DNA of 64,000 bases from Amoebophrya sp. A120 (taxonomy: Eukaryota; Protista; Dinoflagellata): assembly GCA_905178155.1 (NCBI GenBank), contig CAJINV010000002.1, forward strand, positions 8,939,412 through 9,003,411. Reading direction: 5' to 3'. Both the position numbers and the translations under genes were made by a program. The notes under the pieces were generated by a model, which worked only from the letters and a program-made list of their open reading frames with translations, was not told the DNA's origin and ran no database searches. Positions 316-59,595 of the stretch are shown here, one piece after another (position 1 is the stretch's first letter; each line of letters begins with the position of its first letter).

Positions 316-3300
316 CCTCTCCGCGTGAAGACGCCAATTCCTGCTTTTTTTCTACGCAGCCGTGAAGAGCGTTTCTTTCCGTTTCTCGCCCTCCTGCACC
401 CGCAACATACTGGTCCCGCAAATCGAACACTGAATACTTTTTCGCCGGTTTCAAAGTTTCCGCATCGTCCTCGTAGAAATTCTTGTTTACGTCAGACTTA
501 CTTGATGTCTTATTTTCAACGTTTGATGCAGTTGGTCTTGCTTTCTCGCCGACTGCCTTCCTCGCATCTACTTGTTCTTTAAACGCATGCAGCTCCTGCT
601 TCCGCTGCAAGTACTCGTTTCTGGCCTTGTCGAGGGGGGAAGTCGTTGTATGATCCTTGTCATTGTACACGTTCTGCGCGAAGGCGTCTTGGAAAACACG
701 GTCACTCACATGGTTCCTGTTTAATACGTGGCTCTCCTTGCTGGCATGTAATTCTCTCTTGCGAGCATCCTTTTCCGCATCTACAGCTCTGCCCGGCTGC
801 ATCACAACCTCCAGTGGTGATCGTTTTGGGAGTTCTTTCCGCTTGTTGTTCTCAAACCCTTCGACTTCCCGCGCGGCCTTTTTGTCCTCCTCCCGCAAAC
901 GCAAGGCGATGGCGTCGATTCGCGAGGAAATCGCGACCCCCTGGTCGTCTTTTCTGCTTTGCGGCGGGGGAACTGACTTCGAGGTGGTCTTCGACGATGA
1001 AGAGGAGTCGACAACAACCCGCTCCCGTTGAGAATTAAGAGCTTTCTTGTCGGAATCCGGAGCACCATTTTCATCCCGTATTTGCAACCCTGGTGATCTT
1101 TGTTGTTGCGCTGTAGGTAGAATCTGCTGGTGCTTCTTCTTTTCCACGATCTTCTTGGAAGCGGGAGAAGCTGGGTACTGGGCCTGCTTTCGGTACATTG
1201 CCATCTTGGCGCGAACTTCATTTTCCTTCTCACTGCTCTTCTTCCTCATCTGAAGGTCTGCGTACCGACCAGGCTCGCGGCGGCGCGGCGGGTCTTGCAC
1301 CTGCTCCAGAGCGACGTTGTAATCCCGAGCTAAGAGTAAATTTCTTCGACCGTGGTCGCGATTCAACATTTGGTTCCTTTGTTCCTTCTGATTTGGCTTC
1401 CTCTCGTCCGCTGCGTTGTTCTGCTCCTGCTTCGCGTCTGTACCGGGTAGATCTGTCTTCTCTGGAGGTCCTTTCCGGTGGTCGAATATTTCTTCACTAG
1501 TCTTTTTCACCGGTGTAGATTTGCTGGAACGCACGACGACCCTCTTCACCACACCCGCACGGTCATTCGGATAATGCTCAATCCGTTTGGACGACGCAGG
1601 CCGCTGCTGAGGACGGTGCAAAACCTTTCGCGGAGTGGACCTGCCAGCAGGGTAGTGGTTGCTCTTGACGTTATTGCTTGGCGGTTGTGGCTTGTGGTCG
1701 TGCTGTATTTTTCTTTGCTGTCCGGCGACCGTGGGCTTTTTCTCTACTCGCCCTTGCTCAACCGCATTCATCGCATTCGGAGCGGTCCTCGGATCACTCA
1801 CGTTTTCCTTGTCCAGAACCACAAGCGACGCAGCAGGTGCGGGGGCAGCAGCAGCAGCTACTGCTGCTGCAACTCTGTCCAACTGCTCTCGCCGATGATC
1901 TTCAGCAATCTGCCCGTCCCCGTGCCGCTTCATCTGCTTTTTTGGGTTTAGTATTTCGTCCTGCTGTTCTGGAACCCTTTCTTCAGCGGGAACCACCACC
2001 CCCGCCTGAAGACCCTGTGCTTTCTTCATGCTGTTCTTTTCCGCATCAAGCGCCTGCGCCCGCTTCTTATCTTCCTCCAGCAATGCAAAAATCTGCTTCC
2101 GCAAAATCTGCTTATTCAGCAGGTCCCGCGCTTTCGGGCGTTTCCGCGGGTCTAGTTGCAGACACAGGTCCACTATCAAATGGAAAAATGTCTGGGTCTG
2201 GAAGAATGCAACTTGTGATGCTGCATTTGGATTCCAGAAGAATCTGTATTGCATGAGTACCAAAAGGAATGTAACATTTGCTACGCGGGGGAGAGGGCAT
2301 TTGTCATGCGGAATAGGCACCAAGAAGCTCTCAAAAAATCTGTCATGCTAGAACATGCATCACAGACATCAGGGCTCATGCAAAACGTGCATGACAAGTG
2401 TCAGAATCTTCCAGACCCAGACATTTTTACAGTTGATATCCACCACTTGCTTCAGCTCATCCAGTTTCGCGACATCAAGTTGATGCGAAGATTCGTGTTG
2501 TACAGCCGGGATATTATTTCGTCCAGTTGCACCTGCAGATGAGGACGAAGATGAACTGTTTCCCGGTTTCAACTTTTCGTATTCGCCTTTGAGGATTTTC
2601 AGGACCAAGCCCTTCATGCTTTCGTCGTCAAACGCGTGTTTTAACGTGATCATCTCGTACAAACAGCATCCAATGGCCCATATGTCGGACTTGTAGTCGT
2701 AGGGCTGTGCCTGGCAGATCTCGGGGCTCATGTAGAACGGCGTGCCGATGGCGGTTTTCGCAACGTCAGACGTGTGGGAGAGAACCCGCGCGATGCCGAA
2801 GTCCCCGATTTTCACGTTTTCGAAATTCGGAAGAACTACTGGAGGGTTGTTTTCTGACATCAGTGAAGACATTGCGACTTTGGTCAAAAAGATGTTCTGC
2901 GTCTTCAGATCCCGGTGCAGAATTTTCTGGTCGTGGATGTACTTCACGGCAAGTGCGATTTGCGTGAACCAACGGAGAATCAAACTTGCGGGAAGAAACT
3001 GCTTCAACTTTTTCTGCTTCCGAATCCGAGTGTACAGGTCCCCGTTCGTCGCATAGTCCATGACCAGACACAGAAGCTTCTGCGGGGACGCGGGCCGGTG
3101 ATCATTGTAGTTACCTCGCTCGTTGTCTGGGTTGGTTGTCGTTCCCGCTTTGTCTGCGGAAGTAGATGACCCCGTCAGGAAAGAATCACGATATCTGAGG
3201 AAACATCAATTGAAGAGGCTGCACATTTTCATATTATTTCACACGGTCAGTGTTGCATCACTCCTCCAAGAACAACATACACGTCCTCCTCGAGAATGCT

Positions 3301-10534: not shown

Positions 10535-11474
10535 CTACACTGCTTGTATACTGGTGTCACTCACGCCGAGCTCCTCAGATTCGAGTACCCTGGAGTAATC
10601 CGTGCTTGGTTGGTGTACTACAGCATGAACAACATTCGACGCCGCTCCAAGTCCGATCAGCATAAAGATAAAACTGCCCAAAAGCACGATGAGCACCAAA
10701 ACGGAAAGCCCCGACATTCCAGCCATACCTGGTGGTTTTTTCTTCTTGATGTGAACAAGGCCGAGTGAGATGCAATAGAGGAGGCCCGCTGGGAAGCAGA
10801 AGTTCGCATCGTAGTCAAGAAGTCAAAAAAAAACATTGTATGTTCTATACGGTGTTGCGGCGTCAGCTCCACACCGCCGATCACAGTTCTCCATTCCGGA
10901 TTTGCGTTTTTATTGAGGAAAAACGCCCACGCACCGCCGAGCTGTTTTTGATAGAAAGATGTTTTTCTCCGGTCATTTTTCTCATTGCAGAATTTTTGCT
11001 TTTCTTGTGTGCATTCGCGAACCACACAAAACATCAAGATACGCATATCTATGAAATTAATCTCAATACTGCCAAGATGCACAGCAGGCTTGTTGGGTTC
11101 ATGAGCAGACCGAACCCTAGTATTCCCGCGTCCACAACGGCGTAGTTCCAACGGAAGTAGCTCAGATTTTTCGTCACTTGCATCACGTTCAGGCCCGTGG
11201 GCTTCGCCACCGCGCAAAATTCGCCCAGCCATGGTCGGATCACGATTCGGCTGTTCATCGCGCTCTGCAAAGCCGTGGAGCCCGAGGAGGAAGCCGTACT
11301 AGCGGAATCCATCACGCCCTGAGGGATGGCGGATTTTACCGACTCAAAGAACGTGTTCAGAGAGGGATGCAGCTGCGGTCTCCCAACCATCTCCTGCATC
11401 TCAATCTCGTTGTTCGCATTCACACCGCCGGACGAAGGGCCCGAGGCATACAGCTGGTTCGGAACGACGCTCAT
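10535..11474 (-). CDS. PRA1 family (prenylated Rab acceptor) protein, ~229 aa, 3 exons
   Basis: RPWLGEF...NLSYFRWNY and C-terminal VVHAVVH motifs plus hydrophobic hairpins. Exons 11474-11070, 10941-10851, 10728-10535 are joined in frame by GT-AG introns. Confidence 0.88.
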
Positions 11475-12284
11475 TTTTCCTTGCTTTATTTTCCAGCTTT
11501 TGGCAAGAATGCCAGTTCTTCTTCTTGTTCTTCCAGGGGGGTACGTCCGGCGTACTAAACCTGCTTGATCTACGAGGTGCTATAGCCAAAAGAAGAGAAA
11601 CTATGAAGCAAATGCGACTACGGGAGCTGCTTCTAGGGTTCTTTCGGACTGCGTCAATAACAGCGTGGTAGCTGCAAACAAGACGTATTTGATAAAGATG
11701 CAGCTAAAAGTCAAACCATCGAGCTGAGCTCTACTTTCTCTGTGACTACCTTTCTCTCAGCGTCGTTGGCAAGAACGCCAATGCACTTCCTTAGCCTCAG
11801 TGTCACGAGTTGGAGTTCGATCACGCTATGCAGCGTCACCCGAGGAGCGGCACGACGAACACTCGAGCTACACAAGTTCCTGCTTACACGAAGTCGATAA
11901 CCTTCGCGACACCGTCGTTCGTTGTTGTATTTGGTTTCCCCTATCAACTCAAATTCTACATGTTTTTCTCCTTTCTGTTAAAGAGAGACCGATCTTCATC
12001 TTGGATACATCATGTACATCATTTTTCTAGAAATCTCGTGTCGAAAAAGAAACTCAATTTATGCACAACAAACGAATCTCGATACTGTAATTGTTGAAGT
12101 TGAAGTGGAAGTTGAAGATAGTTCGATTCTACAAAAACATCTACAAGCTCTGGGTCGTGACCCTGCTCATGAACAGAACTAACATAGTTTTGCCATCAAT
12201 TTCAATGAGTCTGTACCAGTACAAGCACTGGCCGAGTTCATCTTTGCCGGAGCCGATTCACCACATTTACAACATTCGCCGGCT

Positions 12285-15200
12285 TCACTTTACGCGGTCA
12301 CTCCGCCCGTAGTCCGTCGTACTCTGATGGCGCAGCCCAAAATTTCGCGTTGCCTGCGACGCAAACTGCCGCGCGTCCCGGGCGGCCGACTCGTCAAACA
12401 TCATGGTGTTGCGGCGCCGCATCAAAGCAAGTTCGAACTCTCGGTCCTGCACACGCTCCTCGTGGTTCCTCGTGCGCGCCATGATGTGGTGCATGGAGTT
12501 TTGCATTTTCAGCAAATCCTGCTGAGATGGCGGCTCCCGTTCCCTTCTCTCCGGTCCACTGTGTCTGCCAAGCTCCACCATATAACAGTGCACAACTCCC
12601 CCTCCCCCTCATTTGTATAGCATGAACGGCAATACAAGCATCAGCAAGAATGCCGGTTTTGCATGACAAATTTGCAGTGGAGTATGTATGGTGGTATTTG
12701 GGCTACCAGAACTTGTCATGCAAACAGTGTCAAGAGGCAAAGGGTGGATTGGGTATTTTGCATGACGAATCAGGGGGAGGGGGAGTTGTGCACTGTCATA
12801 CTCCACCCCGTGCTGTTCGTGTTCGGATTTGAAGGCAGGCGCGCGTGGACTACGCAGCACTTGTTGTTGCTGTCTCGGAGTAGCAGCGCTCCGTGCGGAC
12901 CTTGGCGTTGCTTGTGGTTGTAGTTCCGCAGCCGTTTTAGTATTTTGTTCGGATGAACCAGCAGCGTGGTTTCTATGATGCGGATGCCCACCGTCGTGCT
13001 GGTGCGCTCCGTGCGCAGAGGATGCTATGACTGCTTCGTCGTCGTGCCTGTTGGTGATGTCCAATGTTGGATACTGATCGGACGCGATGCTTCCGTAGAT
13101 ATCGTTCTCTGGTGCTCCAAAAACGGTAGGGTGAGACCTGGTCAAACGCGGAGCAGCGTGATGCCCTGCCGCGATTTGGTGCGCCCCAGCTGTCTGTTTA
13201 TTCTCTTGGTCTTCATACAGTAACGCGCCGTAATTTTTCCCGCCCATGGCGACGTGCGGGGCGGAGTTTTCCGGCGTGTCCCCACTTGCACCTCGTGGAA
13301 CCAGGTTTGGGCTGGAGACCGTCCCCGCGAGAAGGCGCTTCTTCGTCCTCTCTCGCCTCTTGTTCGCGTCCGCCTGGCATTGATCCCGCGCAAGGCCCAG
13401 CAAGTCCGCGGAGTCCTGCTCGGCAATTTGGTCTTGCTCCTTCAGCATCCTTAAAGCCGACATGAGCGGCAACGCAAGAAACGACGCGGCTGTCTCAAGG
13501 GCGCTCCTCGTTCGCTCCGCATACATGTTCAGCGAGGAAGCGCTTCTTCCATTCTCAAGCTCGGACGACTGTGGCACGGTCCGACTGGCGAGCGAATGCC
13601 CGCTGCTGCGGCTAAGCATGCTCGCACTCGTCACCACATTCCGCCCCGCCTGCATTCCCGCCTGGCGCTGGTCCTCCGGAGTAACCATTTTTCCGTGCAA
13701 CTTCTCATCCGCCTTCGCGTTCTTCGCTAGAGACAGTAGTTGTGGCGGCTTGTAGCCGAAAAGGGACCGCCGCAAATAAAAGTAGAACAAGTAGAGCCGA
13801 CTCCGTCTGGCGACCGCACCCCGGCCCGTGGAGGCAGCAGAGATGACTTTGGGTAAATCCTGTTTCCAGGTGCCGATGGTGATCAAATTGTTACCGTCGT
13901 CGTCCATGACGTCGAAGAGTAAGCGCGTAATCTGCAGGCACCGCAGAAGCTCCACTTCCCCGCGGATGCAATCGGTCACGTATTCCGCCACCTGATAGCG
14001 GGAAGGAGATCGTGTTCTCATTCTGACAAGCTCAATGCCACCGTCCTATACGAAAAACTAAACGAATTTCAAACCAAATACCTTATGACACAGCAGCAAG
14101 CTGCTATCGGCGTCCGTCTCGTCCTCGGGCGGCACGAAACCGAAATCTTGCCCCATGTACTTGTACAAGGCGACCAGCTCCAACTCTCCCAGGCAACTCG
14201 GGGCCGCCGGGTCCTCTTCGGCAATCTGCATCGCGTGGTAGAGAAAAAAGTGGTCCGCGTTATGCATCAGCAGAATGCACCAGCTGATCCAGATCACGCC
14301 CGGGAACATCGCTAAAAAGACCGCGACGATCAGGTAGTTTTCGACAGAGAGGTTCAGCGGATTGTCTTCCCCGCTGCTGTACACGGCGATCACCGTCCCG
14401 ATAAAGTAACAGGCCGGCACGACCCACCGGGACACGCCGTCCAGGTCCTGGACCAATAACGGCCCCAACCGCTGGTACAGAATCTCGCCTATCATCACCG
14501 CCAGGACGCAATTCGTCATCACCAGCGTGATATACAGCAAGGCCGCGTCGAAGTGGGACAGTTCGAACATGGTATCCGGCGCCTCCTTATCCTGTGCAAA
14601 AGTATCGTACTCGTAGTAATCGCAGGCATGCATTACAAATCTTTTTCCTAAGGTCAATCAGCATTACAAGTTCCATTTCTCATGCGGAGAAAATTTGTAA
14701 TGCAATTCATACTAGAAGAACTAGTACGATACTTTTGCAATGCATACTCCTCGGTCGCAAACGCCTTGAAGTTACCGAATGCGAGAAAGGCGAGGAACCC
14801 GGACATGAACCGCGGCATAATGTTCGACGGGTGCACGATAAACGTCGAGAACGCAAAAATCGTCAGCAGCGCCGCCGGAACCCAAATCCGGTAGCGCATC
14901 AGCCCCACCGCGCGGGCGACAGTAACCTTTAACGTCGCAACGGACGTGGCCGAAGCGTCCGAGGTGGTTGTGGTGTTGGACCGAGTTAGGAGAAAACTGG
15001 ACTTTTTCGGTTCCCAAATCCGCACCCAGTGGTTCTCGGCGACAATTGCGGGGACGCCGGGGGAGAAGTATGGAATGTTGAAGTTATCCGGCCGCAGAGC
15101 AGTGAGCGCCGCTTGCAAATGGGCGGGGGAGAAAGCGAAGGAAGATGAAGCTGTACTAACAGCATTTCCACTACTTGTAAGTCCTTGTGCTGTCGCACTC

Positions 15201-18025
15201 AGCTCCAAAATGGCGCTCGTGAACTCGCCGTAGTAATCGCTGGAGAACACCGTCGCGGTTTGCGGCTCCGCGACAATGGTCATTTCCTGTCGGTCGAAGG
15301 GGTATTGGGTCCAATTTGGGTACACCGGGCAATCGTTCACCTGCACCGAGTAACTGAATTTCACCAGCGGGTAGAAAACTTCCAACTTTTTCCCATTGAT
15401 CGGGATCTCCAGTACGGATCGGCAGTCCTGGATGGTCATGCGCGGGAGAAAAACCGTCTGCTGCGCCTCAGCGAGGTTCACCGTGTGTGTCTCGTAGACG
15501 CCGTTCGCCAACATGGTGCGCAGGTCGTGAAAGACGATCTCAATCTGCAGTCTCGCGGTAAAAATGGTTTCCTCGTACGAACGAAACTCCTTGTAGGACA
15601 GGTGCAGATACTGCATCACGTTTTCTGATGTTGCTCTAGGAAAAGAGACTGAGCCCTGGGCTCCTCCTGCGCTTCCCAGATTCATTGCCCCGGAGGAGCC
15701 GTAGGAGAATTCGTTTCTTTCTGACGTAGGCATCGAGTAAAAATACCGATTCTCTTGTTCACTCGACAATGAAGAAGCAGCCGAAGCGCCGGTGGAGGGA
15801 GCCCCGAGGAAGATGTCGCATCTCCTACCAAAGTAAAACGGCAAGCAATCGCAATACGCTACTTGCGATGATGTTGAAGATGTTGTACTACCTGCGGCTA
15901 CGCTTCTGTCACGTGATACCAGCAGTTCGGGAACCAAACCGTAGGGGAACGAACTTGACCCAGATGAATGCTGCTGAGTAGAAGAGCCAGAGAGAGACAT
16001 CTCTCGGCAAAACCCGTACACACAGGTGCCGTTGCGTGTATCCAGCTGCTGACAGGGCGAGGAGGCTGCGGTTGTTGGGAAGGTGAGCTGCTTCGTTCGC
16101 GTGATGGAAAGTGCGAAAGAAGTAGCGGTCGAACTGGCTGTTAGTATTTCCATGTAGTTCTGAAAATTCACTATCGGTTTCAACACCGCGGTACTTGGTG
16201 TAGACGAAGACGAAAAAGCAACGTTGGACACGTAAACCCGCATGGATGAAGCAGTGTTCCCACTCGTCGTTGAACTACTTGCCGACTGCATCATTTGCGC
16301 CGTACTTTGATACCGCAGGTTTTCCCGCCCGGACACTTTGCTGGAAAAAGCCTGCTGCGCAAAAGCGTCTGCCAAACTCGATGCCGCTGTCGTCGCATTC
16401 CCGATCGCCATCAGAGCGGCACTGGCCGCGTCGTAGACTAATGGAAGTGAATTTTCGCACAGCCCCGGCGGCGACAGCCGCTCTTCCGGCAATAACCACG
16501 TGGGCGCAGCGGCAGGTTTTGCGGTCGTGGTGCTTCCAGACAGGGTGGTTGACGAAAAGATAAAACTCGCTGGTAGCTTCAATGGACTACTAGTCGCACT
16601 TCTCTTTGCCCACGTGTTCTCCAAAAACTCAGTCGAAAATTGGGCGCTTTCTGCGCTGGTCAACAGCGTGTTTCGAATGTCGAAATTTACCAGCCCGTGA
16701 AACACACTGTCGACACTTTTCGACTCTTCACCGAGCGACTGGCTCATAGACCCGTAATTCGTTGAGGAGGCCGAAAACAAATCCTCGCCTGCATCTACCG
16801 TGACAAATACGAAGTCCTCGTGTCGCTTTCGCAAACGTTCGCCGACGGCTCCTACACCCGTTGCGTTCCCGACATGCGAAGCCGTGCTCCTTTGCAAGAA
16901 TTGGAACTTCCTCGCTTTTTCTTGAAAAAAGCTTCGCAGCACAAGGGGCGCGCCGTTCAGAAGTAAAACGACGAGTTGCACTGCGGAGTTCTGTAGCTCG
17001 GTTAGGACGTAGTCAATTTCAGCGAGTAAGTTATCATAATCCTCCATGGAGTAAGAATCAGCAGCTCCTTTCGGCAATTCGAAGCGAAGAACAGAGCCGC
17101 TGCTGGTTGTCGCGGCAGCCCCTCCAGCGCTGCTCTCCACTCCCTCTACGAACCGGTCGCCGAGTATTTTCGCGGAACCAGACGCGCGAAGCGATACGAC
17201 CGCAATCTTCGCTGGCGATATTGATGTATTTGGATTTGCATCCGCTGTGCCTCCATCACCTACAATGCCCGCAATCGGTACAACTGATTGAAAAAAACCG
17301 GCGATTTGCTGGACTAGAAACAACAGCGGAGTCGTCGCGTCACTCCGAACCGTATTCGAATCGTAGAAGAGAAACTCACTTGTGTAATTCTGTCTCTTCA
17401 CCACTCCCGTCCGAGGCAACGCGTCTTCTAACCGCTCAACGCCAAACGGAACCAGCGCCACCGCATTCTTCTGCTGCGCCGCCAGCGCGCTTTCGAAATA
17501 CACCTGCGCCGCCTTCAGCTCGTCGGCGCTGGACGGCCCGAGGAAGGTGAGAAATTGAGTCGTCGGAGAATTCACTCCAAAAGTCGTTTCCACGACATCG
17601 TTCAGAACTGTGTAACTTCGTCCTGGAACCACGGGTGCGCCGCTGCTGGTCTGACTACTTGTAAAGGAGTCCAAATCCACGCTGGAAATGGCAACGTCGT
17701 CAGTCACTGCGTTATTTGCCTCGGAGCTCGTGTAGTCGTCAAAAGCTAGCTGCGCCGTAGCTGCGAAAACCCGGCAACACCGCTGCGTTCGAAACGGACA
17801 GACGAAAACGAGCTGCGAGCTATTGGTAGGAGTCCCTTGCTGCGCTGACACGAGTTCTGCTGCTTGGAAACTACCGAAGAGAAAGGTGAGGAACAAGCAG
17901 CGGTACGGGAGCCAAGAGGAACGCATTTTCTTTACCATCAACAACAAAGTACTTTCCGAGGTCGCCATAATTTTTGCAGAAGTTGATGAAACAAATTTGC
18001 GATACCACATGATAGAAACTCTCAC
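12285..18025 (-). CDS. Cys-less (Pro-loop) pentameric ligand-gated ion channel-like protein with N-terminal periplasmic-binding/Venus-flytrap-like domain, EGF-like module, extra TM helix and C-terminal EF-hand
   Basis: Signal-like CLFLTFLFGSFQAA; FLGPSS and VYDAA motifs; CVYGFC...CDCLPFYFGRRC; YPFDRQ loop; pre-M1 Arg; M1 WVPAALLTIFAFSTF; M2 PRFMSGFLAFLAF; M3; M4 DGVSRWVVPACY; fifth hydrophobic helix; DDDGNNLIT loop. Interrupted by TIR elements 14588-14746 and 12581-12800 and a GT-AG intron (donor at 14081). Confidence 0.82.
12581..12800. mobile_element. Introner-like element (220 bp), TAT...ATA
   Basis: ~37-bp TIR TATAACAGTGCACAACTCCCCCTCCCCCTCATTTGT / ACGAATCAGGGGGAGGGGGAGTTGTGCACTGTCATA; flanks CACCA / CTCCA (one mismatch); removal of 225 nt joins ORFs 12609-14021 and 12285-12593 in frame. 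Confidence 0.9.
14588..14746. mobile_element. Introner-like element (159 bp), TAT...ATA, in the channel M2-M3 loop
   Basis: TIR TATCCTGTGCAAAAGTATCGTACT / AGTACGATACTTTTGCAATGCATA; direct repeat CTCCT at 14583-14587 and 14747-14751; removal of 164 nt gives FKAFATEEAPDTMFELSHFD. Confidence 0.9.
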
Positions 18026-18380
18026 TCAAAAAACACAGCGGACACACAACTTGCAGTCTCGGCCTGGTGGCGTTCGTTCCTGAGTCTACTTTTACACATT
18101 AGATTTCCGGTTGAGCAGCAAAAAATTTTGTATGTGCAGCAGAAGTTGTATGTGCCAGCACTGACAGCGCACGATCAAACACGAGACCGTCACACCAGCA
18201 GCACCGATACAAAAGTATTTGCCGTATCGAGAAGCTGCGCACTATCTTTGCCCTTAGCGACCAAGACGACATTGCAAATCACGAAAGGACGACGACGCCG
18301 TCCTGTCACAGATTTACAATACGACGAGCCCAACGACCCATGACACAACACTTAACGACAACGTTGCCTCCCTTTATCAA

Positions 18381-18716
18381 CGATGCCTTAGACCTTTCTT
18401 CCCCACATCGTCACGACGATCAAGTCCGACTCTCCTACCTGCTATACCGAAAAAGTTCATGTTGGTGCAGTTTTACTTTGTATCCTAGTTGCGACGCATC
18501 CAATTGGCAGCACTAGCGCCCGCTATTCAATCCAAAACTTGTTCCATCACAGCCATGACAATGTTGGTTGTCGACAACATTTTCCTTCGATTTTTTGGAC
18601 TGCGAAAATTGGTACAGTACAAACGAAAGCTAGCCACATTGTAAGCCAATCGCTGGTACTGAAACTGACACAGAGTGCCTTTTCTTTGAAAATCTAAGTA
18701 TCAGAACTGTTGTGAA
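18381..18716. repeat. Dispersed intergenic repeat, copy A (similar to ~28620-28935)
   Basis: Shared blocks ATGCCTTAGACCTT, CATCACAGCC, TGTCGACAAC, GACTGCGAAA.TTGGTACAGTACAAAC and TATCAGAACTG in the same order. Confidence 0.8.
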
Positions 18717-37645: not shown

Positions 37646-38855
37646 TCAATACTTCAGCCTGGACTCCGCCTTGTTCCCGATTTCTATGAGATCCGGGTGT
37701 GTCAACGCTTCTGGTGGGAATAAAGAGTCCGTGTTTTCCACCCCCACATCGGTCGGCATACGCAGCTCATTCGCGTCATGCAGCAGTGCGTGCGCCGCCA
37801 CGTCGTCTCGCGCCTCGGTCCGAATTTCCATCGTCGCCCTGATATGAATAACGGAAATTCTTGGTGAACTTGAGTAGCTATTCAAAAAACTGTAGTGGCA
37901 CCATGCGGACCAAAAACGACGCGCTTCCTACTTCCTCAAAACAGACTTTCTTATACCTTCTGGAAAACCTAGGTCTTGACCCGGAGTTGTTACTTGCCAC
38001 CGCTGGGTCTACCAAAACTAATTCCCCTGAAGCACTGCCCTCCGCCGTCGGCGACCCCTCGCTCTCCGCGATCGCCGAGTCCACGTCTCTTATCGCCGCA
38101 TGTTCCCGCTCGAACGTTTTCACCCTTTGCGCGTGCACCAAATCTAGTTTTCTTTTCAGCTCGCTTTCGTCCGTTTCTAACAGTTTATGCATGGACATCT
38201 CCATGCCGCGCAGCAAAGCCACCCGCTGCCGCCCCATGCCGACGCCCAACAACCGCTTGCGCTCCGACTCGCCCTCGGCCCGTTTCACCACCAGCATTTT
38301 CTCCGCTTCTGCTTGGTCGGTCGTCGCTTGTCGCAGCCGGCGTAAGGTTTCGATTTGGTTCATCGCTTGGAAGACCTTCGCGGCGGGCATGATTTCCTGC
38401 ACTAGAACTGCGACCAGCTGGTAGCCGTAGCTCGTCATCACCTGCGTTAGGCGCGCGCGGACGGCGGCAATCAGCACGTCTCGGTCGTTGAACACCTCGT
38501 CGAGCATCCGCGTGCAAATCACGGATCTCACTTCGTCTTTCACGTAACTCCCGATCTGCTGCCTGACGTTGGTGAACTTGTAGAACGCGTCGGCCGCTCG
38601 TAACCGGTCGACCAGGTACTGCACCTCGAGCCTGATGTGCACAAACACATTGTCCTTCGTCTTCGCCTCGCAGTCCAGCGTCAGGCCCATCTGCCGCGTG
38701 GACAGCGTCCCGGCCAGTTGGCACATGCAGGGCACGGGGAAGCAGGCCAGGCCGGGCGGCTGCAGCCGGTTGAACTTATTGAAGTACTCGACCACCCCGA
38801 TCTCATCCGCGGAAATGGTCACGCAGCAGGTGCACGAACACAGACTGGAGCCCAT
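37646..38855 (-). CDS. SPFH/band-7 domain protein, HIR (hypersensitive-induced response)-like
   Basis: EAKTKDNVFVHI, DAFYKFTN, AMNQI...AEAEKMLVVKRAEGESE...LLGVGMGRQR; acylation-like N-terminus MGSSLCSCTCC; GT-AG intron 37839-37956. Confidence 0.9.
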
Positions 38856-39303
38856 CTTAGATACTAGGGTGACACAAAAACAAAGGCAACGAGCTTTATT
38901 CTAGAACGCCATTCTCACAGACGACAATCCACTCTACTATCGTGACGCAATTTACCTCGCTTTTGTGGAACGGTTGCAACTGACTTCTCCAACCCTCTCT
39001 GCTTCTTATGTAACGCCGCGAGGCACGCACGCATGCAGCTCTAGTCACTCTACAAGAACGACATCATAAACAAAAACCCGTGCACAAAAGCAAAACTACT
39101 CGGACACAGTTGAAAACATTCGCTGCAGCAAAGTTGTGGGGATTTTTCCAGCCGGGGACGCGATAGTTCGTTTCTTTGTATCCGTTCGATTATTAGGCCG
39201 AAGCCGGGAATAGAACGCGTACGCGCTATTGTCCTGAAAAAGAAGTTGAAGTGTCGTCGGAAAATAGTATAAAATTCGGAGTCTGCTTCACTACAGTTCC
39301 CTG

Positions 39304-45355: not shown

Positions 45356-47449
45356 CTACCAATCTCCGCCGTACCCAGCCGTCCCGCCATGCCTGCTGCC
45401 CGTGATCAACACATCTGACTTCGTCGACTCGCGCTGCGCGGTCTCCAACTTCGGACAGGCCGCCACGCGGTGCCCGAGCCCGCCGCAGTACACGCAGCCC
45501 TTGACACCACCGATCTCGGCCACCTCGTGCCCCGGGGGAGGCACGATTTTTTCCAGCACCGGGTGAATCTTCTGCTTGGACTCCTCCAGCACCGCTTTCA
45601 AATCGAGCAAAATCCCGTCCGTGCACTGGATCTTGTTGATGAACGTCGTGGCCACCCCCGCCTGCCCCCTTCGACCCGTCCGTCCTATTCTGTGGATGTA
45701 ATTCTCGATCTCCTTGGGCATGTCGTAATTGACGACGTGCTGAATGGCGAGCGGGAAATCCAACCCCTTGGACGCGACGTCCGTGCCGATCAGCACCGAT
45801 TTCTTCCCGGTTTTGAAGTCGTTGATGCTCTCCAGCCGCTCCTGCTGGTCCATGCCACCGTGAATCGCGACCGCGTCGACCCCCTTCAACAACAGGTACT
45901 CGTGGACATCGTCCACGTCCGCCTTGTTGTCGCAGAACACCAATACCGGCGGGGGGGTTTTCGACAGGGAGTCCAATACCGCCTTGTGCTTGTCCTCCTG
46001 CTTCACATAGGCGATCTCCTGCAGAATGTCCAAGTTCGCGCTCCCCGCGCGCCCGACGTTCACCACCACCGGGTTCGTCAGCATACCTGCGGCGAAGTTC
46101 TGGATCTTGCGGGGCATGGTCGCGGAGAACAGCAGCGTCTGCCGCTGCCCGGAAAAGTGGTCTAAAGTTATCCTGACCTCCTCCTCAAAGGTCGCGTCCA
46201 CCATTCGGTCCGCCTCGTCCATCGCCATCAGCTGGCACTGCTTGAGGTGCATCTTCCCCATCTGCAACAGCCCGTTCAGCCGGCCCGGCGTCGCGATCAC
46301 AATGTGCACGCCGCGCTTCACCGTGTTGATCTGCGGGCCCATCGGCGCGCCGCCGATCAGCAGCGCGAACTTGATCTGCCGCCGGTTGCGCCGCCACAGC
46401 TCGGACGTGGTGTCGTTGTGTAGGTGGTACAACAGAAATTTCAGGTTCTCCTCCGTCTGCACCGCCAGCTCCCGACTGGGCGCGAGCATCAACCCAAACG
46501 GGCCTTCCCCCTCGGACATGGGCTTCTTCAACTCGCACTCCATCGCCTTCATAATGAGTGGTAGCAAGAAGCACATCGTTTTCCCACTACCCGTGAACGC
46601 GATCCCAATTAAATCCCGCCCTGCTAGAGCTGCGGGGATGCCCTGCATCTGAATTTGAGTCGGCTTTTTGATCCCCTTCGCGACTAGCGCGTCCACCAAG
46701 CCCTTCGGAAACCGCATGTACTCGAACTTCTTCAGCGGCGGGGGTAGGTCCGCGCCCGCCGCTTCGAACATAAACATCTCGCGCAGCTTTTCGTTTTCCG
46801 CCTCGGACTGCAGGCGGTGTTTCGCGAGCGGCCTCCACTGCCCGATGGCTGGCATGGGTTCCTTGTATTTGATCCCCTTCGCGTTTTCCTGCCGGGACAC
46901 GAGCGGTGTTTGGTACTGCAGTTGCTCCATGATCTTCGCTTCCGACTCCTCGATCTCCCTCCGCAGCTGCTTATCCTTATCCTCGCTGTTCGCCTCTTCT
47001 TTCGCGCGAATCTCCGCGGACTGGGCCAGCAGCGAGCTTTGTCCGGTGGACCGCTCGGCGAGAATTTTTTTCAGTTTTTCCTCCAGCTGCTCCTTCTCCT
47101 TCTCCTCGTCGTCTTCGATCAGTTCCGCTTTTCTCCGAAGTCTATTCAACTCTTGATTTCTCTGTTTCTTCCGCTCCTTCAAAGGGACGTAGGTGGGTTC
47201 ATTTTTCTCATCCTCGTCTTGTTCATCTTCGCCATCAAGAAGATCCTCCTCGTCCTGTTCTCGTTGCCGGCGCTCCTCCTCCTCACGGAGACGTCTTCGT
47301 TTCCGGTACTCCTCGATGACCTTCTGCGCATCCTCCTGCTCGGTGTTTCCTGCTTCCGAATTAGTTGCACTTTCACCGGGTCGCTTGGATGAGGGTCTAG
47401 TTGTACTACTTCCCTGCTTCGGCGGCAACGACGGCGGAAGCATCGACAT
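45356..47449 (-). CDS. DDX41: DEAD-box RNA helicase DDX41/abstrakt
   Basis: PTQIQMQG, GIAFTGSGKT, PSRELA, DEAD, SAT, TDVASKGLDFP, HRIGRTGR and C-terminal zinc knuckle GCVYCGGLGHRVAACPKL; intronless. Confidence 0.95.
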   Translation of the reverse strand: MSMLPPSLPPKQGSSTTRPSSKRPGESATNSEAGNTEQEDAQKVIEEYRKRRRLREEEERRQREQDEEDLLDGEDEQDEDEKNEPTYVPLKERKKQRNQELNRLRRKAELIEDDEEKEKEQLEEKLKKILAERSTGQSSLLAQSAEIRAKEEANSEDKDKQLRREIEESEAKIMEQLQYQTPLVSRQENAKGIKYKEPMPAIGQWRPLAKHRLQSEAENEKLREMFMFEAAGADLPPPLKKFEYMRFPKGLVDALVAKGIKKPTQIQMQGIPAALAGRDLIGIAFTGSGKTMCFLLPLIMKAMECELKKPMSEGEGPFGLMLAPSRELAVQTEENLKFLLYHLHNDTTSELWRRNRRQIKFALLIGGAPMGPQINTVKRGVHIVIATPGRLNGLLQMGKMHLKQCQLMAMDEADRMVDATFEEEVRITLDHFSGQRQTLLFSATMPRKIQNFAAGMLTNPVVVNVGRAGSANLDILQEIAYVKQEDKHKAVLDSLSKTPPPVLVFCDNKADVDDVHEYLLLKGVDAVAIHGGMDQQERLESINDFKTGKKSVLIGTDVASKGLDFPLAIQHVVNYDMPKEIENYIHRIGRTGRRGQAGVATTFINKIQCTDGILLDLKAVLEESKQKIHPVLEKIVPPPGHEVAEIGGVKGCVYCGGLGHRVAACPKLETAQRESTKSDVLITGSRHGGTAGYGGDW

Positions 47450-48081
47450 TTGATTGAAACTTGAAACGATGAAATCAGATTTGGGTTTTGACTCGTGGTA
47501 CAGAGTATTTCTTCATGTTCTTCAAGATGGTGAAAATTAGTGGGGAAAAAAAGGATACTTAAAAAGCTAGAGAGGAAATTGTAGGACGGGTTATTGCTTT
47601 TCTTCCCTTGGTCTCTGCGAAAATAAGGATAAAGGATCAGAATGTAAAAGTAAATTACATGTATCCTTTCGCATGAAAAACGTACACAGTTTCTGCAAGA
47701 AAGACAATTTTTTTTGCGACATTTTCGAATCAAACTTCATGCTGTGCTCTTCGACAGCAATTAGAGGGCTGAGATCTGTTTCTCACAGGGCTTTCTTAGT
47801 TTACGAATCGATTTGAGATCGCGTCACCCATGCCCTGCTCTTTCTAAGGTGCCTTTCGTTTCAGCAGATCAACACGCTATTTTTGAACACTGAAAAGGAA
47901 AACCAGCTATCTCTTTTACTCCGCGAACAAAAAAAGGATGTTGCGACGACCAGCAAAAGGACACTGCTCCGTCGGTTTTGAGTACTTCTATGTACAAATG
48001 CTAGTCGTGAGTCGCGGTCGCTTCTACTGTCGTGATCGTGAAGGTATTACGAGTGAAGAAATTTTGTCGAAATCAAGTTCC

Positions 48082-56112: not shown

Positions 56113-57938
56113 CTACCCCTCAGCGCGACCTATTTGCAATTTCATAAAGACCACGTCCTCGCCTGAAAGAGATGACCCACCGTTCACAGCAGTGTGTTTT
56201 GTTTTGCTTTGCGAAGGAACTGCAACAGCATTGTCCAGTAGTGCGCTTTTTGCGAACTCGTACGCGCCGAAGAAGATAAAGCCTCCCGCCCCGACCCACA
56301 AAACCCGCGGGACCACGCCGCAAAAGAGAGCACTGAATCCTTCCTCCGCTACGATCTTCCGCAGCATGCCCCGCATCGTCATGTCGCGAATTTGTCTCGT
56401 CTTCGCCGTCATCAGCCTTGTTTTCGCAACGTCCATAGGGCACGTGAAAAAGGCCGCGATCGCGCCTCCGAAACTGCCGCACGCTGCGCCGATGTATCAA
56501 AGTGAAAAAAGCCCCCACCCCAAAGCAAAATGGAAATTTGTGATGCTGATTTGCGGTCACAAATCGCGTTGTAATGCTAGAATGGAAGAGATGCGGACTG
56601 TAGTGCTGGCTGCCGCAGAAACGCCTTGCGGCTTTGGCATGACAGAAATTTCCTGGAAACGGGAAACAGCATAACAAACTGCCTCCAAACGAGGGAACAA
56701 CTACGTCTCTTGGCCTTCTAGCAATACAAATCGATTTGTGTACTCAAATACAGCAACACAGATTTCGTTTTCGATATGGGGAGGGGGGATTTTTCCTCAC
56801 AATACGATGAGCGGGTTGAGTTCCGCGACGGACCTATCCTATGTAAAAACGTACCCACCCCAGAGTTGTCATGCAATTCTGCATGCCAAAAAAGTTTCTC
56901 ATGTAGAGCCCTATGAGAAGCATTTTCTATTTATGTTTTGGAATTTGTTATGCTAGAATCAGTATTGTAGGCTAGATCTGTAATGCTTCTGAGCTAGCGA
57001 AACAGGATTACACTACGAGGACAAACTTGTCATGCCAAACGACCAAAGCTGTGTGATTTGTCTAGCAGATTTGCCAACGTGACTCTGGTGTGGGTACGTT
57101 TTTACTCAGGATAGGACCCGCACTTCCACACATTCACAGCGAGATGGAGTTTCAGCCCTTCGTAAATCGGAAACTGGATGAATGCAAACGGAACCTCCCG
57201 TGCGATGGTGGAGGATAAGCCCGCGTAGAACCCGCGCACTGAGCCCCGCCCGTTCCCGTCGAAAATCATCTGCGCGGTTTGCGATAGGGATTTCTCGGCG
57301 GTCACCTGCATCTTCTGCTTGATGTTTTCAGTCGGCACTCGAATCAAACAAGCAGCAATTTCCCCGGACGCCGCCGCCGTGGAATGCGCAAGCCACGAGT
57401 ATTTGCTGCTGAAGTGCATGGTGGAACTTTGCTCGATAGAAATTGGAGGTGTTTTCTTTCCGCTAGAGGAAGCAGTTGCTCCATCATGCTGTTGTCGCTC
57501 GTCGTGTGAACAGCCTTCGGCAACACCACTTTCCTGTCGCATTCGCTCATCAAACGCGTCCGCTCCCCCGTTATATCGGTGTTTGTACTTCTCATTCAAG
57601 TCATTTCGCCACTGCAAATGCCGCGGTGCGGTCACTGCAGTACTATTATTCCCAGTCGATAATTGCCTCGCGCTCGGCTTCACGGTCCAGTACTCGATTG
57701 CGGAGAGTAGTTTCGGTTTTAGGAATTCGTACGTGGCGAAAAACAGGGCGGCATTGGGCCACGATCCGATCGCCGTGATGGACAAGCCTCGGTAGATGCC
57801 GCTGAAGCCACCGCTTTTCCAGAAACCGTCTTTCGCCTGGAGACGTGTCTTCAGCGTGTCCATGGGGAACAGGGCAACGTCCACCGTCGTGCCGGCAAAG
57901 CCCCCGGCCAGAAGTGCAGTTTGTGTATCGACCGTCAT
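56113..57938 (-). CDS. Mitochondrial carrier, S-adenosylmethionine transporter-like (SLC25A26/Pet8)
   Basis: FPMDTLKTRLQ, RVPTENIKQKMQ, REVPFAFIQFPIYE, CPMDVAKTRLM, PRVLWVGAGGFIFFGAYE; two TIR elements flank a micro-exon. Confidence 0.92.
56495..56804. mobile_element. Introner-like element (310 bp), related to 50484-50807
   Basis: TAT...ATA ends; right TIR TTTTCGATATGGGGAGGGGGGATTTTTCCTC near-identical to 50771-50801; direct repeat CGATG; removal gives NPLIGAACGSFGG. Confidence 0.92.
56835..57113. mobile_element. Introner-like element (279 bp), related to 34273-36066
   Basis: TIR TATCCTATGTAAAAACGTACCCACCCCAGAGT / ACTCTGGTGTGGGTACGTTTTTACTCAGGATA; direct repeat GGACC; removal gives WKCGSVAELNP. 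Confidence 0.92.
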
Positions 57939-59595
57939 GGCTGAGTTCTCACGCACAAGTCCGCGTTCGCGTCATCTCTATACTGCGACAAGTACGCAAA
58001 GCGCGGATGTTGACGACTTTTCTTGTGTGCGGAACTTCTTGTTTGACGAGACTTCATGAAGCAATGCACACTCACGACCAACAAGAGACAAAACAAGATG
58101 CGGATGTAACGCAGAAAAAAGCGACATATCCGAAGCAGATGCGCCCAGACTTTTTGGGCGCCACGGCAACACGGCGGACCGAGCTAAATGCTTGAACACC
58201 ATCGCATTGAAAAAAAATGTGCTTCCACAGGTGGCATACCGCCAGGCGTGCAGCTTGCGCTTCGTGACCAAACGCAAAGAAATCACTGACAGATTGAGCA
58301 TTTGAAAAGCTGGCTCAGAAGAGCGCAAGTTGTGCTTCTGCGCTGTACATCCAATGTGTCTCGATGTGTACATAGCATACTCGGCGTCGGAGGTAGGAGG
58401 TTATACTTGGGGGGTAAGTACATTTCAAGATTTCGTAGAAGAGTCTCAAACTTGTTGTGCGAATGTTGACAAAAAATTCTCCCGTACAGACTTGAAACTA
58501 TTTCCTCCACGGAAGGATGTCGGCAGAAAAGCTCCAAATCCTATTTCCAAAATCACCGCAACGCTCCATGAGAGAGATTTTTAATTGTCTAGAAGCGGCA
58601 TACATGATGTCTTGTCGCCTCCATCAAAATCCACATATGTCGCTTTCGGAGAGCTGCACTTTCGCTGTTTTAAGAGTGAAACGGGTGAAATCTCAGCTAC
58701 ATAAAGTACTTACTACCAAATCCTGCTCTTCTTTTTTGCATCACAGCATCACTATCCCAAAACCTCCTGCTCTAGCCTCCACGTGGCTTTTCGTTCGGAA
58801 ACAGAAATGCTTCCTCATGATATTACCCAAAATCCATCATTTTGCATTTACTGTCGTACGGAAGACTTCTTTCCGTTCCCCCAATGTTGCTTTTATTTGC
58901 TTGCTTTTTTTCGAGATCAGATAGTAAAACTAACAGTGCGCAGTAGTTGAGCGATGTGCTATGAAAAGTAATCAAGTTGTTCTGAGCTAAATTGGTGTTG
59001 TCCTAGATAGTATACAAGGACCAGAGTTAGGACCAGTCCAAAATCATACTTCAGTGCCGCGGCTCCGATTGCACGCACAGCTGCCCAGAGTCGTCCCTAC
59101 CTGCAACCAAGGCCGCGGCTTCGCTCCGAAGATGCGCTTCAAAACTTTGAAGCATCTTCGTTCTTTCGGGGGCGCTCGTGGCTTCTTTGTTTACCCCTAG
59201 AACGAACGTCTTAGCTGCCAATACATACGTATACAGAAGCGATAGTCAGATAAAATCAGAATAATGTCAGGTTTAATTCCTAGTCGACACAAACTTCTCC
59301 GATAAAAAAACTGTGATCTGTGGTCTGAAGCAAGCATACTACTATTCAAGGCACGCTCGACTACTCACGCGCGACGTGTTGTAGTCGAGACTCGTTTTTT
59401 CGCCGCGATATCTTGCTCCGCGAGACAAACAGAAACAGCACGCAAGGAAAACCTTGATCATCTCGGAAGAAGAATCACATTTGATTTATCCCTGGTGCTA
59501 CTCCTGCAGTCCGTAGAATAAGTAACTTCTTCTGTGCACGATCAGTTTCCCTTCGCCGAAAGTTTCTTTTTTTCCTTTCGCTTCTCACCACAAAC

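Follow-up and report, generated by a model that had tools for sequence, protein, structure and literature searches.

Introduction

Ion channels of the pentameric ligand-gated type (pLGICs) with an additional sensor domain ahead of the channel have been predicted in bacteria. In Magnetospirillum and Bradyrhizobium, a type I periplasmic-binding domain is fused ahead of pLGICs without the Cys-loop cysteines, and these proteins were proposed to be chemoreceptors (Tasneem et al., 2004, PMC549065). According to PMC12664993, another Cys-less channel, DeCLIC, is the sole pLGIC whose N-terminal domain has been characterised in part. Cys-less Pro-loop receptors of protists were reported by Jaiteh et al. 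(2016, PMC4795631), who discarded the terminal domains and urged their analysis. Here, we describe a gene on the minus strand of a 64,000 nucleotide (nt) stretch of DNA from the dinoflagellate Amoebophrya sp. A120 (contig CAJINV010000002.1; the whole stretch is called the window). Its product, P0001, belongs to a dinoflagellate family of Cys-less pLGICs in which a Venus-flytrap domain, an EGF-like unit, the channel beta-sandwich, five hydrophobic helices and a pair of EF-hand-like units are joined in one chain.

Apparently, this family has not yet been described. No paper was found on a eukaryotic flytrap-pLGIC family or on a five-helix EF-hand pLGIC in a search that had most of the subscription literature outside its reach. 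An EF-hand pLGIC is not mentioned in the available part of a survey of diatom channels (PMC11085791), and the terms 'ligand-gated' and 'ion channel' have 0 occurrences in the main text of the Amoebophrya genome paper (PMC7789003). In the supplements of PMC4795631, there are 2 matches for Vitrella and 0 for Symbiodinium, Perkinsus, Gymnodinium, Alexandrium, or 'dinoflag'. An earlier note on this DNA, made from the sequence, had not recognised the architecture; this holds for the full eukaryotic form, but not for the fusion of a type I periplasmic-binding domain with a pLGIC, which has been published for bacteria (PMC549065). In automatic domain catalogues, the combination of Pfam domains will be on record already, as seen on P0021.

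The family and its range

With the channel part as query, three of 5162 candidates were retrieved, namely the 1748 aa NCBI product that is identical to P0001, P0002 from Amoebophrya A25, and P0003 from A120. With a profile of the first three sequences, E ≤ 0.001 was reached by 97 representatives out of 1.84 billion; 53 of the 97 were scanned for domains, and many of the remainder are fragments. In three scans, ANF_receptor was matched at E ≤ 0.01, ahead of the same channel, by 10 of 30 proteins, by 2 of 3, and by 1 of 25, which gives 13 proteins altogether. Nine of the ten from the 30-protein scan also match Neur_chan_LBD, and P0015 matches ANF_receptor, EGF, both channel families, and EF-hand. 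Sources are named for 6 of the 13 proteins. These six come from dinoflagellates throughout, namely Amoebophrya A25 and A120, Dinoflagellata sp. TGD, Gymnodinium smaydae, and G. catenatum. The Gymnodinium species are not parasites. At least four paralogs are present in A120 (P0001, P0003, P0004, and P0101), and a query with P0021 found 9 proteins. No named protein from Symbiodiniaceae, Perkinsus or an apicomplexan was present among the relatives with sources looked up.

A flytrap-less group, represented by P0047 and P0051, consists of a signal peptide, the beta-sandwich, M1 to M5, and EF-hands. P0035, P0062, P0075, and P0057 are further Cys-less pLGICs of this flytrap-less group that carry a fifth helix and loops of the EF-hand type. 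An Atlas cluster of 83 eukaryotic proteins (score 0.91 for the channel part), commonest in haptophytes, contains Neur_chan_LBD in 99% and EF-hands in 95% of its members. In a tree of the extracellular and transmembrane domains (34 chosen rows, quick method), 17 flytrap/EGF proteins lie on one side of a branch with a Shimodaira-Hasegawa-like approximate likelihood ratio test (SH-aLRT) value of 98; the membrane-only tree (53 of 69 rows) does not resolve the flytrap group (4 changes). The branch of P0001 has a length of 0.57 in the membrane-only tree, compared with 0.45–0.86 for its paralogs, and of 0.89 in the tree with the extracellular domain, compared with 0.71–0.83. The simplest reading of the unrooted tree, offered tentatively, would be that M5 and the EF-hands came first and that the flytrap-EGF unit was added once. 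This unit has been kept from syndinians to core dinoflagellates.

The channel core and its pore

By its model, the channel part of P0001 is a member of the pLGIC/Pro-loop superfamily, with a beta-sandwich and a four-helix membrane domain, as the earlier note had claimed. The model of residues 789–1343, built from a 69-row alignment, has a predicted local distance difference test (pLDDT) score of 84.3 and a predicted template modelling (pTM) score of 0.82. VIA matched it to GluCl (Z 23.0, root-mean-square deviation (rmsd) 2.9, 299 aligned residues), GABA-A beta3 (Z 22.6), and DeCLIC (Z 21.4), and the Foldseek matches listed are all pLGICs. All seven signature positions of the superfamily (PMC4795631, Table 1) are present: Y903, P904, D906, W995, R1033, P1045, and Pro 23'. 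P0001 itself has no significant Pfam match, including Neur_chan_LBD and Neur_chan_memb, and none in a PDB sequence search; many relatives match the Neur_chan families, and a profile of 22 family sequences reached E ≤ 0.01 on 769 different PDB sequences, a list headed by glycine, GABA-A, and GLIC channels (best 5e-26). The Pfam miss is a limit of sensitivity, not a defining loss. A match of P0001 to Sortilin (E 0.007) is below the cut-off and was rejected.

The Pro-loop had been read as lacking the second Cys. This Cys is indeed absent, but the first one is out of register as well: Cys894 is placed at Pro-10 by the alignment, whereas the Cys of glycine receptors is at Pro-8. Thus, as the Cys ahead of the Pro-loop lies 10 and not 8 residues before the Pro, neither Cys-loop cysteine is in register, and the strict C-x13-C disulfide is absent in P0001, with Val at Pro-8 and Met at Pro+6. 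Cys863 and Cys894 occur together in 7 of 22 rows, the first only in 2, and neither in 13, so that the two would probably form a clade-specific disulfide. In loop C, no aromatic residue is conserved across the family in an alignment read by eye.

Cation-selective pLGICs have an acidic residue at position -1' of M2. P0001 has Pro instead, and the P-A-R of anion-selective pLGICs (-2' to 0') is replaced by M-P-R. Over 69 rows (2 gaps), the counts for M2 are 52 with Met at -2', 59 with Pro at -1', 65 with Arg at 0', and 2 with Glu at -1'. In animal channels, anion selectivity depends on P-A-R, and a channel without that Pro was cation-selective (PMC8536830). Because an acidic -1' ring is missing and Arg 0' is present, we lean slightly towards a family pore that would pass anions rather than cations, a lean weakened by the missing P-A-R.

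The ectodomain

For the N-terminal part of P0001, the model has the bilobed fold of type I periplasmic-binding domains (PF01094-like). The earlier note had proposed this from the motifs GPSS and YDAA, which are indeed present on the minus strand at 16.3–17.8 kb. Although the model of residues 61–742 is of low confidence (pLDDT 49.8), it was matched by Foldseek with E 2.5e-6 and by VIA with a best Z of 15.5 (rmsd 5.5, 316 aligned residues), and the matches include natriuretic peptide and GABA-B receptors, LivJ-type proteins, and N-terminal domains of glutamate receptors. An Atlas score of 0.85 for this part is a lead only. On a profile built without P0001, its flytrap reached 30.5 bits, compared with at most 3.2 for 500 shuffles.

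However, the flytrap of P0001 has diverged strongly. It scores 26–33 bits on family profiles versus 108–282 for left-out relatives, those from Amoebophrya keeping close kin in the profile. The paralog flytraps are 38–44% identical over about 450 aa, and P0001 aligns to them in patches only; its membrane part (M1 to M5) is 44–55% identical to the paralogs. Ser/Thr motifs of flytraps have a role with amino-acid ligands. In P0013, the motifs SS and S-A-S-T are retained and align with mGluR7 (E 5e-8), and the closest solved structures to its flytrap are mGluR7/8. In P0001, the cysteines and the YDA motif are kept, and the family motifs S-S, G-x-x-S-P, and D-x-W are changed; pocket motifs also vary across the family. 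The idea that P0001 has an intact small-molecule pocket is not supported by these scores. On alignment, P0001 is the most eroded paralog, with alterations in the pocket motifs of the flytrap and in the EF loop. The split EGF-like cysteines had been identified correctly; all six align with the family. The spacer is modelled below pLDDT 50, and the EGF Pfam match of a paralog (E 5e-4) is below the cut-off.

The fifth helix and the tail

The membrane part has five hydrophobic helices (14908–14262). The fifth, also noticed earlier, is modelled at residues 1168–1195 (380–407 of the model) with pLDDT >90. Of 44 proteins examined, 42 show a hydrophobic peak at the same place; P0014 and P0101 do not, and for P0101 the motif search was misplaced. 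Alignments to solved pLGICs stop near model residue 375, ahead of this helix, and the EF-like region has no counterpart there either. Across the family, Lys plus Arg account for 0.066 and Asp plus Glu for 0.151 per residue in the M4-M5 loop, and for 0.159 and 0.088, respectively, after M5. An acidic loop followed by a basic stretch is as expected for a loop outside and a tail inside, and at the family level the tail is likely to be cytosolic. The earlier proposal that the fifth helix returns the tail to the cytosol thus agrees with the family bias, but not with the residues that directly follow M5 in P0001 (see below).

The motif LFDVMDDDGNNLIT and the final stop were confirmed on the minus strand near 13.9 kb and at 12285, respectively. 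The tail is EF-hand-like, as had been suggested, but the model contains two helix-loop-helix units instead of one EF-hand (helices 433–447/465–476 and 482–496/506–522, channel-model numbering), and the loop that had been seen ends in Thr, not Glu. In this loop, Asp1, Asp3, and Asn5 are kept, Gly6 is lost, and Thr1296 occupies position 12. In contrast, 10 of 14 relatives, and among them each of the four other Amoebophrya proteins, have an EF loop that ends in Glu, and one more is doubtful. The Ca2+ feedback once proposed for P0001 is therefore not supported. EF-hand Pfam matches of relatives reach E 1e-4 to 1e-5. Amoebophrya and P0007 carry the canonical EF loop in their second unit and several other dinoflagellate members carry it in their first, that is, the working site has been swapped.

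Possible roles of P0001

We regard it as about an even bet (rough probability 0.5) that P0001 is an accessory subunit that co-assembles with intact paralogs and not a stand-alone receptor. This reading is suggested by the erosion of both its sensor pocket and its calcium loop, and the number of paralogs together with this erosion points to heteromers. At the family level, a small solute would make the flytrap close, in members like P0013 one that resembles an amino acid. The EGF unit would relay the closure to the beta-sandwich, and the conserved switch of Pro-loop, pre-M1 Arg, and M2-M3 Pro would open the M2 pore. M5 would place the EF-hands in the cytosol, where Ca2+ could tune gating via the intact EF loops of the paralogs; P0001 would line the pore and shift the ligand or Ca2+ sensitivity of the heteromer, itself binding Ca2+ poorly. 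Several points weigh against this proposal. Heteromer formation is deduced from paralog number and erosion, and a sensor domain that diverges fast may just as well have acquired a new ligand. In the flytrap model, 385 of 682 residues are under pLDDT 50. P0001 has no Lys or Arg within 20 residues after M5. A canonical EF loop is also missing in P0008, P0014, and P0027, and the EF-hand Pfam matches of relatives are all below the curated cut-off. The pore motif of P0001 is M-P-R and not the P-A-R of animal anion channels (cf. PMC8536830). Finally, the flytraps of glutamate receptors and the N-terminal domain of DeCLIC (PMC12664993) are regulatory and not clearly the trigger of the gate.

If the sensor has diverged to accept a new ligand, for example one derived from the host, P0001 might alone form a homopentameric chemoreceptor with Ca2+ feedback through its own EF-hand. 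The persistence of the flytrap fold with both lobes, cysteines and YDA, the intact and spliced frame, the presence of all gating residues, and the three retained ligand positions of the EF loop (Asp1, Asp3, and Asn5) would fit such a receptor. We nevertheless consider it unlikely, as the EF loop has lost Glu12 and Gly6, the three family motifs of the flytrap are changed, and the family also occurs in non-parasites. A role in host finding, the example given in the earlier note, would be speculative. The flytrap may instead be a modulatory or assembly domain, as in ionotropic glutamate receptors, with gating at the beta-sandwich interface, by pH or ions, or by internal Ca2+ at the EF-hands. The sister group of P0047 and P0051 has the remaining architecture without a flytrap, so that the channel core appears to stand without it; the Atlas cluster pairs channel and EF-hand domains, and the pocket motifs vary within the family. 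Against this, loop C offers no aromatic conserved family-wide, as far as read by eye, and the flytrap-EGF unit, on one branch with SH-aLRT 98, was kept from syndinians to core dinoflagellates. We consider a modulatory flytrap improbable to a similar degree. That P0001 is a decaying duplicate, transcribed and no longer forming a working subunit, could be suspected from the most diverged flytrap tested, the many Ser/Thr-rich insertions, the split EGF unit, and two introner insertions. Yet 1748 codons are free of stops, both introners are spliced precisely in frame, the membrane domain has kept its identity to the paralogs, and the branch length is paralog-like in both trees; decay is thus very hard to credit.

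Returning to the accessory-subunit reading and extending it to the whole family, it is conceivable, although we would not bet on it, that closure of a class-C-type flytrap of the kind found in G-protein-coupled receptors (GPCRs), and not the classical interface site, opens a Cys-loop-type pore, that the fifth helix provides a cytosolic C-terminal Ca2+ sensor, and that divergent subunits like P0001 tune heteromers in the swimming stage.

Gene structure and neighbourhood

The features of the gene are compiled in Table 1. A minus-strand open frame of 1123 codons (18025–14654) is followed by further frames down to the stop. The first ATG after the opening of the frame at 18025 is at 18010, and others upstream of Met29 are at 17968 and 17938. 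A signal peptide had been proposed; a hydropathy peak agrees with it, and the signal-peptide-like stretch fits Met29 (17926) best.

Contigs of five sequencing runs (X1 to X5) were compared with the gene; X1 to X4 are called RNA-like, their RNA nature being a guess. Contigs of X1 and X2 skip 164, 90, and 225 nt, and a single 4996 nt contig of X1 (11925–17399) carries all three joints. In X3 and X4, the 90 and 225 nt skips are present in the pieces listed, whereas the DNA-like X5 has an unbroken contig (12775–14612) that retains the 90 nt intron. These skips bear out the earlier removal of two terminal inverted repeat (TIR) elements and one intron, and the exons joined in this way yield P0001 letter for letter. 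Acceptors that would give 158 nt for intron 1 and 228 nt for intron 3 were ruled out by the RNA-like joints and the paralog alignment.

At 17390–17399, inside the N-terminal domain, the RNA-like contigs are interrupted in each of the four runs, and none bridges this site. Two separate genes were rejected as an explanation: the frame is open, and 13 homologs have both domains in one chain, in line with the earlier claim of one polypeptide. The 10 nt overlap at the break resembles the start of a sequencing adapter. Because of this and the open frame, read trimming is likely to be the cause. Such an adapter-like motif could split gene models.

Introns 1 and 3 have all features of Amoebophrya introners, namely an inverted repeat, a direct repeat at the junction, splicing, and genomic repetition. 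Their TIR arms are at 14588–14614/14720–14746 and 12581–12616/12765–12800, respectively, and in X5 both reach depths hundreds to thousands of times the background. X5 also contains apparent joints between the ends of both introners (12800 to 14588), probably by mis-laying of related elements from elsewhere.

Table 1. Features of the P0001 gene (window positions)
Feature	Positions	Strand	Basis
Whole gene P0001, 1748 aa, four coding exons, Amoebophrya sp. A120	12285..18010	-	RNA-like joints translate exactly to P0001
Exon 1: signal peptide, flytrap, EGF, pLGIC extracellular domain, M1, M2	14747..18010	-	open frame; contigs 14747–17399 and 17390–18033
Likely signal peptide, Met29-Ala56	17843..17926	-	inferred from hydropathy peak at aa 38–56; spacing to conserved L-x-F-x-C motif as in paralogs
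Venus-flytrap/type I periplasmic-binding domain, aa 61–626, eroded, Ser/Thr-rich insertions	16133..17830	-	model, fold matches, family profile
EGF-like spacer, six Cys, split by Ser-rich insertion of ~39 aa	15818..16054	-	alignment
pLGIC extracellular beta-sandwich: YPFD Pro-loop (15304–15293), beta9 Trp, pre-M1 Arg, probable clade-specific Cys863/Cys894 pair	14912..15616	-	alignment, model, fold match
M1 with Pro kink; M2 with Met -2', Pro -1', Arg 0', and Leu 9'; Pro 23' in exon 2	14747..14908	-	alignment, model
Intron 1: 164 nt TIR introner, 5 nt direct repeat, readable as GA-AG (14749–14586), high copy	14583..14746	-	
Exon 2: M3, M4, M5, start of first EF-like unit	14080..14582	-	RNA-like joints, channel model
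M3; M4; M5	14555–14466; 14462–14376; 14345–14262	-	channel model
Intron 2: 90 nt, GT-AG	13992..14081	-	skipped in X1–X4, retained in X5
EF-hand-like pair; second loop DDDGNNLITIGT (13904–13869), Thr at position 12	13827..14186	-	model helices, loop comparison
Exon 3: EF region followed by conserved SRLYLF helix and weakly conserved tail	12801..13989	-	alignment, RNA-like joints
Intron 3: 225 nt TIR introner in high copy, its ends (TA..TG or GT..GT) non-canonical	12576..12800	-	
Exon 4: end of tail and stop	12285..12575	-	RNA-like contigs, extending to ~11925

All 16 stop-to-stop frames of at least 250 aa in the window (1–64000) are on the minus strand, a bias in keeping with reports of unidirectional gene clusters in Amoebophrya. 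Neighbours on this strand with Pfam matches are a protein kinase (2369–3205), PRA1 (11049–11579), Band 7/SPFH (37878–38900), a DEAD-box helicase (45356–47512), and a mitochondrial carrier (57102–57971). Ten of the 15 window frames scanned had no Pfam match, and no second channel gene was found among them. Upstream of the gene, RNA-like contigs cover 18187–18700, a region with no long frame that is probably the 3' end of the next gene.

Comparison with known systems

Introns 1 and 3 agree with the introners already described in Amoebophrya (Farhat et al., 2021, PMC7789003) in their TIRs, short direct repeats at the junctions, and non-canonical ends, with no difference of note.

Among the channels, the Cys-less protist Pro-loop receptors (PMC4795631) share with P0001 the signature residues, a short M3-M4 loop, and the missing Cys-loop disulfide. 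GluCl, GABA-A and glycine receptors are its best sequence and fold matches and have the same length of the M1-M2 loop, Arg 0', and Leu 9'. Unlike these anion-selective Cys-loop receptors, P0001 has no Cys-loop, M-P-R in place of P-A-R, a hydrophobic 6' residue, and extra domains at both ends. DeCLIC (PDB 6v4a) is also a Cys-less pLGIC with an added N-terminal domain; however, the lobes of its N-terminal domain are similar to other regulatory domains that bind calcium, the action of Ca2+ is on the outside, and the match in structure does not extend past M4. The solved pLGICs stop at M4, so the five-helix EF-hand C-terminus offers a test of direct cytosolic action of Ca2+ on a pLGIC. The flytrap-less group is the simpler object for such control, and together with the eroded P0001 it provides ready controls; P0003 and P0101 are better test objects than P0001. 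The family proteins are candidates for fast chemoreceptors in dinoflagellates and in a parasite with effects on algal blooms.

The bacterial ART-LGICs, known by prediction only, likewise have a type I periplasmic-binding domain before a Cys-less pLGIC (PMC549065). The P0001 family differs from them in being eukaryotic and in adding an EGF spacer, a fifth helix, and EF-hands. As the P0013 flytrap is, among solved structures, nearest to mGluR7/8 and the nearest channel relatives are flytrap-less, the eukaryotic fusion may have arisen separately. With ionotropic glutamate receptors and class C GPCRs, the family shares a flytrap on a membrane signalling protein, while the membrane part is unrelated; the small spacer, rich in Cys, is reminiscent of the Cys-rich domain in class C GPCRs. 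The flytraps of these receptors work as dimers, an arrangement that does not fit a five-fold channel. The family is a natural test of whether a clamshell sensor gates a pentameric pore, and of how five flytraps sit on a five-fold channel.

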